DNA of 64,000 nt from a virus (Duplodnaviria; Heunggongvirae; Uroviricota; Caudoviricetes), in IMG/VR virus record IMGVR_UViG_3300035188_001315; one strand, 5' to 3'. This document shows positions 3,603 to 4,268 of the stretch, piece after piece. Numbering within the stretch: the stretch's first letter is position 1; the number at the start of each line of letters is the position of its first letter. A program made the translations under genes and the position numbers. Under the pieces are notes generated by a model. It ran no database searches. It was not told where the DNA came from and saw only the letters and a list, made by a program, of their open reading frames with translations.

Positions 3603-4268
3603 TTATTTTGACCCATAATGTAAAGGGGCTACAAATAACTCCTCCATAAACCAGAATGTGTGTCCCCATTCATTTAATCCAACGTTTGGAAGAATCATAA
3701 ATGGACCAATTACAGATACCATGTATTGTAATGGTAAACCTTGTTGATAGGTTGGCAATCTTGTTTTAGCATATAAAAATGCAGCAACACCTGTAATAAT
3801 GTAAATTGGATAACTTAAATAAAACTCAATAACATGACTTGGTGTAAAGTCAGTATCACGGACAATCGTTTGATGCCATGTACCATCTTGTTCTGTAAAG
3901 TATGATGCACCATAATAAATCGCAATACCATACATTACCAACCAAATCCAATGTGTGAAGTGTCGTCTCAATTCCTCACGAGGAGTAATTGACATTACTT
4001 TTCGATCACGTGTCTTCCAAATATAACCCCATAATACTGAAGCAGTAATTACTTCAAGTACCATTTCAATGTAAAGGAAATTCATCCAATACGTTTCAAA
4101 CTCCGGTGCAAATGAATCTAAGCCGGCTGACCAACCATAGACTCCTTCATACCAACGAACCCAACCATAAAATACAACGTATAACGCTGCACCTGCTAAC
4201 ATAGCTTTTTTGTTTAAAAGAGAAGATTCTTTTACTTCTGCTTTTACCATTTCTACTGTTGCTGACAT
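3603..4268 (-). CDS. pmoC: ammonia/particulate methane monooxygenase subunit C family protein (PmoC/AmoC-like), C-terminally short
   Basis: Translation carries the conserved blocks [94 protein letters not shown], diagnostic of PmoC/AmoC. AGGAGA RBS 7 nt before the MSATVEMV start. Ends right after PLHYG, so the last TM helix of bacterial homologues is missing. Confidence 0.85.
   Translation of the reverse strand: [221 protein letters not shown]

Follow-up and report, generated by a model that had tools for sequence, protein, structure and literature searches.

A stand-alone pmoC gene is carried by a Caudoviricetes virus (IMG/VR record IMGVR_UViG_3300035188_001315), from which a stretch of 64,000 nucleotides, hereafter called the window, was analysed. 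A first-pass annotation of this DNA had described a 221-residue PmoC devoid of the C-terminal helix of its cellular counterparts and followed by nothing but a structured noncoding tail of about 350 bp. Our analysis leads to a different view. The gene is very probably not truncated: it would encode a full-length PmoC of 250 amino acids and be split by a 258-nt group I intron of the IA type, which contains no open reading frame (ORF). The alleged tail consists of this intron and of a 95-nt second exon, and it is in this exon (3258..3352) that the helix thought to be absent is encoded. All coordinates are those of the window, and pmoC with all its parts lies on the minus strand.

Organization of the split pmoC gene

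The ORF initially annotated (3603..4268) has 221 codons and runs from an ATG at 4268 to a TAA at 3603..3605. A ribosome-binding site, AGGAG (4276..4280), can be read off the sequence 7 nt to the 5′ side of the ATG, and this initiation codon aligns with residue 1 of the PmoC structure 6cxh_C. The 221-residue product matches the Pfam AmoC family PF04896 with an E-value of 2.8e-112 (374 bits for a cutoff of 26.7), as well as the NCBIfam models TIGR03078 and NF041641 (AmoC_BACT), for which the scores of 365 and 337.5 bits exceed the respective cutoffs of 319 and 280.6. Its residues 1-219 align with residues 1-219 of the 250-residue PmoC of Methylotuvimicrobium alcaliphilum (PDB 6cxh_C and 7s4l_C; E-value 4e-136). 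The window gene is a real PmoC/AmoC homologue, as the first-pass annotation had stated, and the three identity blocks quoted there are present. The family-profile match of the unspliced ORF ends about 30 residues short of the profile ends, the product reaching only position 216 of 245 in PF04896.

The six metal ligands of PmoC are all kept (D128, H132, H145, N199, H203, and H217), which bears out the earlier statement that the metal-site residues are preserved. With the offset given by the 6cxh_C alignment, these residues are equivalent to D156/H160/H173 and N227/H231/H245 in the M. capsulatus numbering. We take the second of these triads (Asn/His/His) to be a metal-binding triad of PmoC as well. 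Chen et al. 2020 (PMC7674155) refer by name to the first one, D156, H160, and H173.

Exon 1 (3611..4268, 658 nt) comprises codons 1-219 and the first base of codon 220, and holds the six ligands. It is followed by the intron (3353..3610) and by exon 2 (3258..3352), which completes codon 220 with two bases and adds codons 221-250 and a TAG stop codon at 3258..3260. The last two codons and the TAA of the 221-codon ORF fall inside the intron; this in-frame TAA, at intron nucleotides 6-8, is the stop behind the apparent truncation. On the 3′ side of the intron, the translation reads ...VFFGWAALGVLGVVNIEVQAISNLLKNDLA up to the stop codon, which is the missing C-terminus of PmoC and includes the last transmembrane helix, FVFFGWAALGVLGVVNIEVQAISNLLKNDLA. 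The intron boundaries were set by the rules of group I introns and by homology, exon 1 ending with U3611 and the intron with G3353. The boundary is unambiguous because the last base of the intron (G) differs from the last base of exon 1 (T).

Joining the exons gives GGG U/UU GUA (Gly219-Phe220-Val221, with a slash here and below for the junction) and an in-frame coding sequence of 753 nt for 250 amino acids. The spliced product aligns over residues 1-250 with residues 1-250 of 6cxh_C; the score increases from 455 to 510 bits and the E-value goes from 4e-136 for the ORF alone to 8e-153. The 31 residues restored by exon 2 are 77% identical to the C-terminus of 6cxh_C. Thus, the full PmoC architecture, with its C-terminal transmembrane helix, is obtained solely after removal of the intron. 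The ligated junction predicted in this way, CATTATGGGT/TTGTATTTTTTGG, that is CATTATGGGTTTGTATTTTTTGG, is found unchanged in intronless viral alleles. Judging from its codons, exon 2 is under purifying selection: in every pairwise comparison of alleles, the differing codons are synonymous at least as often as nonsynonymous (9 versus 2 between the window and locus L020). An intrinsic terminator (3223..3250), made of a 12-bp stem and a T run, begins 8 nt past the stop codon of exon 2. In view of this position, the transcription unit consists of exon 1, intron, exon 2, and terminator.

Structure of the intron

At 3400..3620, the sequence is matched by the Rfam group I model RF00028 with 86.4 bits (gathering score of 50; E-value 4e-22). 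The ribozyme core, P3 to P9 (3400..3566), was drawn from this match and from an alignment, A1, of the window intron with 11 related introns from viral pmoC loci (12 in total). In this core, P3 is formed by 3560-3566 with 3449-3455, P4 to P6a occupy 3500-3557, and P7 (3489-3493 with 3422-3426) makes a pseudoknot with P3; P7.1, P7.2, P8, and P9 come next. A peripheral extension, P9.1 and P9.2, reaches out to 3364, and the terminal guanosine (omega-G) is at 3353, directly before the 3′ splice site. Helices P2, P3, P4, P5, P6/P6a, P7, P7.1, P7.2, P8, P9, P9.1, and P9.2 can all be drawn in the window intron, and most of them are recovered by the minimum-energy fold (z-score of the minimum free energy, -4.05). 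By the presence of P7.1 and P7.2, the intron is classified as IA-type. The IA2 subgroup of group I introns is traditionally tied to phages (PMC11878797, PMC3984707).

Both substrate helices are found at the exon borders. The internal guide sequence GGCUC (3594..3598) forms P1 with the exon end GGGU (3611..3614) and the intron base C3610, and the 5′ splice site is marked by a U(3611)·G(3597) wobble pair. Directly 5′ of the guide sequence, AAUACAG (3598..3604) pairs with the start of exon 2, UUGUAUU (3346..3352), to give a P10 helix of 7 contiguous pairs from position +1.

Alignment A1 supports these helices by covariation. Over 13 helices, 95.3% of the cells are paired and compensatory double changes occur in 48 of 67 pairs. 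In controls where the partners were slid by 1-3 columns, 36-47% of the cells were paired and at most 15 pairs were compensatory. Shuffled alignments never reached the observed value on four of five measures, and one of 500 reached it on the fifth. In P7.1 and P7.2, all the cells are paired (100%), with 3/4 and 5/5 compensatory pairs, respectively.

The pairing of the guide with the exon was also compared among the introns. In each of 12 related introns, located at 7 pmoC positions, the guide occupies the homologous place in the intron and is complementary to the 5′ exon of that very intron. The exon end GGGU faces the guide GCUC; likewise CUUU faces GAAG, CGCU faces GGCG, CGGU faces GCCG, and UGGU faces GCCA, with a U·G pair at the splice site in the P1 helix of every related intron. 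We consider this matching of guide and exon as the strongest single test that can be drawn from the sequences in favor of the intron. The terminal G is found in 11 of the 12.

Distribution of introns among viral and bacterial pmoC genes

In IMG/VR, about 120 viral contigs carry pmoC, and a rescan with the protein of the L044 type gave essentially the same set. The closest relatives of the window pmoC are IMG/VR viral contigs. Bacterial matches numbered more than 591, and the best 80 of them were compared with the best 80 of the viral loci. Within this viral set, a single tblastn match extends across essentially the whole query at 27 of the 80 loci, and nearly all other loci give one uninterrupted match that ends early, at divergent termini or at the end of the contig. 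Intronless viral alleles are 94-95% identical in protein to the window PmoC. Introns break pmoC at 10 of the 80 viral loci (seven distinct sequences), with RF00028 scores of 69-105 bits where above threshold. The introns of L020/L021 and of L022 are below this threshold; their assignment relies on a split protein match, on intron-to-intron BLAST, and on alignment A1. At the 80 bacterial loci (Methylobacter, Methylomonas, Methylovulum, Methylotuvimicrobium, and related metagenome-assembled genomes, MAGs), pmoC is uninterrupted and there is no BLAST match to the intron family. The difference between 10/80 viral and 0/80 bacterial loci has a Fisher p-value of 0.0014. The gene is stand-alone in all 80 viral loci; pmoA is found 3′ of pmoC in 74 of the 80 bacterial ones.

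The introns of phage pmoC genes occupy at least eight sites, with up to four introns in one gene. The window site, HYG/FV, is shared with L009/L010 and L283. The sites VYG/WS, EWG/HTF, HTF/WF, WF/ME, FVA/PL, and FFG/W are found in other viral loci. The site EQDG/TWHQ is that of L199 (IMGVR_UViG_3300043449_002017, intron at 12641..12901), between Gly129 and Thr130 in a metal-ligand motif. Six of the eight sites fall in codons 202-225, around the N-x3-H...H ligands. Two introns are present in the pmoC of L042 (5596..6149). In L044 (IMGVR_UViG_3300047476_001516, 1540..2612), four introns are found within 26 codons and leave micro-exons of about 13, 23, and 30 nt. Eight genes were checked after removal of their predicted introns; in seven of them, the conserved region was whole again and the C-terminus ran without a break, and the gene of L039 was not read to its end.

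The window site itself distinguishes phage from bacterial alleles. Many phage alleles read GGG T/TT GTA TTT at this place, whereas the bacterial ones read GGY T/TC GTA TTC and are without the GGGU needed by P1. A scan of IMG/VR with the core motif of the intron was generic and matched introns of many unrelated genes; among the matches listed, L199 was the sole addition to the pmoC cases. No pmoC was found in GenBank phages, and a megablast of the window against phages returned snippets of the intron core and of tRNAs only.

Signs of intron mobility

The window intron is identical, at 258 of 258 positions, to those of L009/L010 and of the metagenome contig L283. The exons of the window and of L009 differ at 85 of 658 positions in exon 1 and at 8 of 95 in exon 2 (93/753, 12%), and the exon mismatches closest to the intron lie 4 nt away on its upstream side and 14 nt away on its downstream side. 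The chance of observing no difference in the intron is about 2e-15 at the exon rate and 2e-5 at one-third of this rate. Elsewhere, introns sharing a site are 75-95% identical, so pmoC introns do drift. As judged from these comparisons, the intron was probably passed laterally, and recently, from one diverged allele to another, its flanks undergoing hardly any co-conversion or none.

Free-standing homing endonuclease genes are found just beyond the pmoC stop codon, in convergent orientation, in L009, L013, L020, L042, L044, and L199. Those of L009, L013, L020, and L042 match PHROG homing-endonuclease families, with Pfam matches to SegE_GIY-YIG or NUMOD3 below cutoff. The enzyme of L044 (gene at 2753-3562) matches Pfam GIY-YIG and NUMOD3 as well as phrog_314 (E-value 5e-27), and that of L199, directly 3′ of pmoC, matches HNH_3. 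Homing endonuclease genes are also present near several intronless viral pmoC genes. In the window, a remnant of a GIY-YIG-type homing endonuclease gene, 39 codons long, lies at 3133..3252 on the plus strand; it is convergent with pmoC and overlaps the pmoC terminator. This remnant keeps only the last zinc-finger module (VKETVMLTCPHCNKQGRGNMSRYHVDNCKK...), is preceded by stop codons, and is 84% identical to the last 32 residues of the intact L013 enzyme (gene at 6020-6673).

Unlike introns that encode their own homing endonuclease, the window intron contains no endonuclease ORF in its 258 nt. Collaborative, or trans, homing has been described for ORF-less phage introns (PMC3984707), and the arrangement of endonuclease genes flanking pmoC resembles it. 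By analogy, the occupation of many sites by introns with short retuned guides would also be expected from reverse splicing (PMC3984707). The intron may be seen as a selfish and recently mobile element, belonging to a family that colonised phage pmoC repeatedly, its spread being probably aided by the flanking free-standing endonucleases. As to how the intron moves, we infer a scheme that is offered tentatively and has less than an even chance of being right. In this scheme, one ORF-less intron lineage would have spread to at least eight positions of phage pmoC, retuning its guide of 4-6 nt each time. Reverse splicing would bring the intron into sites matching the guide, the GIY-YIG or HNH endonucleases would then spread the alleles, and the introns would shield their own genome from being cut.

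Proposed splicing route and alternative explanations

The features described above allow a splicing route to be proposed. Exon 1, intron, and exon 2 would be transcribed as a single RNA, in which the intron would fold into the P1-P10 structure. A free guanosine bound in P7 would attack after U3611, held in P1 by its U·G wobble with GGCUC. The freed 3′-OH of exon 1 would then attack after the terminal G3353, while the 7-bp P10 would position exon 2. The ligated mRNA, ...CAU UAU GGG U/UU GUA UUU..., would encode the 250-residue PmoC with all its metal ligands and the last transmembrane helix. On unspliced RNA, ribosomes would halt at the TAA, 8 nt into the intron and ahead of the ribozyme core, and yield the 221-residue product. 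It is because the TAA ends 8 nt into the intron that gene callers, and the first-pass annotation, saw a "truncated" protein of 221 residues. The intron is thus predicted to self-splice in infected Methylococcales cells and to give an mRNA for complete PmoC.

Several points weigh against an intact gene interrupted by an active and mobile intron. Splicing of the window intron in vivo is deduced from sequence features. Intron 1 of L044 ends in A instead of G; this copy may be inactive and, since it lacks the terminal G, not every member of the family need be active. In some related introns, P10 is weak (0-3 bp). The window copy may no longer be mobile, because the adjacent endonuclease gene is not intact. 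The bacterial survey covered the best 80 of more than 591 matches, and more distant bacterial pmoC or amoC genes could hold introns. Finally, Chen et al. 2020 (PMC7674155) noted "no or low expression" for the smaller of the pmoC fragments in metatranscriptomes of the pmoC-phage LR_6. This low signal could reflect poor expression of the downstream exon, or reads over the junction and the short exon that remain unmapped.

Considering these points, other explanations may be envisaged. The gene might be genuinely truncated, coding for a 221-residue PmoC without its last helix and followed by an unrelated structured noncoding RNA. The stop codon at 3603..3605, directly after ...PLHYGSK, would fit this view, as would the fact that public gene callers annotate the same 221-residue product and nothing 3′ of it. 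However, both the covariance model and covariation identify the "tail" as a complete group I intron, the missing 31 residues stand in frame right after its terminal G, P1 and P10 specify that exact exon junction, the terminator is placed after exon 2 and not after exon 1, and exon 2 appears to be under purifying selection. A true truncation is thus barely credible. It may also be imagined that the intron is real but that its splicing has been lost or is very poor, the 221-residue fragment being then the product of a decaying pmoC, a pseudogene in the making. Such a view would account for the low RNA coverage of the small pmoC fragment in one phage (Chen et al., PMC7674155), the loss of the terminal G in one relative, and the decay of the neighbouring endonuclease gene to a remnant. 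The window copy, on the contrary, is intact: none of the core helices is missing, the guide, P10, and the terminal G are present, and J8/7 and P7 have their conserved sequences. Three alleles share the intron without a single difference, and the frame of exon 2 has stayed open, with changes that are mostly synonymous between alleles diverged by 12%, which would be unexpected if this exon were untranslated. We regard a decaying gene as improbable.

Yet another idea adds to the preferred reading of an intact, split gene rather than replacing it. The intron could serve as an expression gate, full-length PmoC being made only when splicing is efficient (depending on GTP, Mg2+, or the state of translation), so that the appearance of PmoC would be timed in the course of infection. 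Each of the 11 related introns checked has an in-frame stop codon whose last base lies in nucleotides 3-24 of the intron. In T4 td, an early in-frame stop couples translation and folding, and the arrangement in pmoC can be likened to it. Moreover, pmoC is expressed late, like structural genes (Chen et al., PMC7674155). But many closely related phage alleles, 94-95% identical in amino acids, are intronless, from which it follows that PmoC can function without the intron; in AT-rich sequence, moreover, a stop near the start of an intron is fairly likely by chance. A gating role appears rather unlikely.

Four further possibilities were considered. A frameshift or a simple pseudogene is ruled out, since the downstream coding piece is 258 nt away and the interval is a complete ribozyme that obeys the U/G rules and has P1 and P10. 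In-frame stops and the match to an RNA family rule out an intein or an in-frame insertion. A group II intron or another RNA family is ruled out, as no other Rfam family reaches threshold at the pmoC locus. An assembly chimera is unlikely, given that the identical 221-residue product is found on contigs from three independent ENA/JGI samples and that L009, L010, and L283 hold the same intron with different exons.

Genomic context

The identical 221-residue product is also encoded on an ENA contig of 227,833 bp. This contig, together with rIIB, RNA ligases, a PNK-like protein, a tRNA array, and a tmRNA, agrees with the earlier proposal of a stand-alone pmoC on a large phage. As was also stated, no pmoA or pmoB follows: with M. 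buryatense queries, no match to PmoA or PmoB was obtained anywhere in the 64-kb window, and pmoC is outside any pmoCAB or amoCAB operon. The view that the gene is not a recent fragment of a host genome can be retained. The nearest bacterial genes are at most 83% identical to it in nucleotides and 92% in protein, and their GC content at third codon positions (GC3) is 30-49%, versus 24% in the phage gene. The codon usage had been called fully phage-like. The GC content of about 36% holds (36.2% for the ORF and 35.7% for the spliced coding sequence), but "fully" is somewhat overstated, the gene being 4-5 points above the window (31.4%). By analogy with the cases described by Chen et al. 2020 (PMC7674155), the window pmoC would be a stand-alone auxiliary metabolic gene in a phage of about 228 kb infecting Methylococcales methanotrophs. 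Following the proposal made in that study, the phage PmoC may supplement the particulate methane monooxygenase (pMMO) of the host.

Among the other genes of the window, rIIB is at 34392..35222 (E-value 6e-77). Genes of RNA-repair type comprise three RNA-ligase-family ORFs (T4-type; 25619..26185, 40924..41604, and 41807..42901) and a PNK/ATPase-like ORF (12859..13995), and a Sir2 homologue is found at 23276..24079. On the same strand as pmoC and upstream of it, a sensor kinase of PAS-HisKA-HATPase architecture (6487..7653) and a receiver-only response regulator (6089..6484) are encoded. Pfam gave no match for the ORFs of 126 and 314 residues between this regulator and pmoC, nor for the small ORFs that flank pmoC in the window. 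From 42900 to 60200, over about 17 kb of the plus strand, short ORFs of 80-163 residues, none reaching 180, follow each other on one strand, a pattern typical of early regions of large phages.

A cluster of RNA genes lies at 8714..11114 on the minus strand, with a tmRNA (10567..10946, 124 bits) and about ten tRNAs. The tRNAs at 9210..9280 and 10340..10410 were found by Rfam and missed by ARAGORN, and an odd tRNA-like sequence is seen around 9910..9990 (minus strand). A second group I intron of 208 nt (10049..10256, minus strand; RF00028, 75.6 bits), without P7.1 and P7.2, splits a tRNA gene (10007..10291) in its anticodon loop, after U34. When 10257..10291 and 10007..10048 are joined, a canonical tRNA-Arg(UCU) is obtained, which ARAGORN recognises only with the intron removed. 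The tRNA region also contains, at 8896..9174 (minus strand), a gene for a 92-residue Lpp-like alanine-zipper outer-membrane lipoprotein (PF11839, E-value 3e-17).

Relation to known systems and concluding remarks

That conserved phage genes can harbour group I introns is well established (PMC3984707, PMC11878797). The pmoC intron resembles those of T4 td, nrdB, and nrdD/sunY and the IA2 introns of Staphylococcus, Bacillus, and jumbo phages in its P1-P10 ribozyme with P7.1 and P7.2, its place in a strongly conserved part of a conserved protein-coding gene, and the in-frame stop just inside the intron. Its core is 70-77% identical to introns of Staphylococcus, Bacillus, and Enterococcus phages, of Pseudomonas phage 201phi2-1 (RNA polymerase beta), and of Acinetobacter phages (DNA polymerase). 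It differs from these phage introns by its location in an auxiliary metabolic gene of methanotroph phages rather than in a gene of DNA or nucleotide metabolism, by the lack of an internal endonuclease ORF, and by the presence of related copies at no fewer than eight positions of one 750-nt gene. Thus, pmoC is a new host gene for a phage IA-type intron, the kind of intron being itself known; the density of intron sites in this gene is unusual.

Another point of comparison is cyanophage psbA, which carries a group I intron with a free-standing endonuclease, F-CphI, in what has been called "collaborative homing". The two systems are alike in having a free-standing endonuclease gene adjoining the target gene. 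Gene, host, and environment differ, and pmoC has far more insertion sites. In addition, the window retains only the 39-codon endonuclease remnant. With regard to cellular PmoC from Methylococcales (6CXH, 7S4L, and the pmoCAB loci of Methylobacter and Methylomonas MAGs), the spliced phage protein has the same length, 250 residues, and is colinear end to end. It is 84-92% identical to the bacterial proteins of the recovered pmoCAB loci, with all CuC-site and CuD-site ligands conserved. The bacterial genes differ in being uninterrupted, in reading GGY-TTC, and not GGG-TTT as in the phage alleles, at the place of insertion, and in a higher GC3.

Stand-alone pmoC genes on large freshwater phages were already known (PMC7674155), and fragmented pmoC genes were reported in the pmoC-phages TP6_1, BML_3, BML_4, and LR_6 (Chen et al. 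2020, PMC7674155). In that study, the words intron, self-splicing, and truncat- are absent and the spacer is never called an intron. By analogy with the window gene, we infer that the "fragmented pmoC" of these four phages would correspond to the same intron family. Our literature search found no paper linking pmoC with an intron, self-splicing, a ribozyme, or a homing endonuclease.

If pmoC is split as proposed here, the public 221-residue PmoC entries would be artefacts of gene calling across an intron, and it would be wrong to conclude from them that phages make a helix-less PmoC. The published fragmented genes may well be intact, which bears on estimates of how many phages are able to boost methane oxidation. 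After cyanophage psbA, pmoC would be a second auxiliary metabolic gene with group I introns and neighbouring homing endonucleases, and phage pmoC would be a hot spot for introns centred on metal-binding codons. With matched intron-plus and intron-minus alleles, and an identical intron across exons 12% diverged, pmoC offers a useful natural system for the study of intron movement. If true, the multi-site lineage would be an unusually clear natural case of transposition by reverse splicing in a protein-coding gene.

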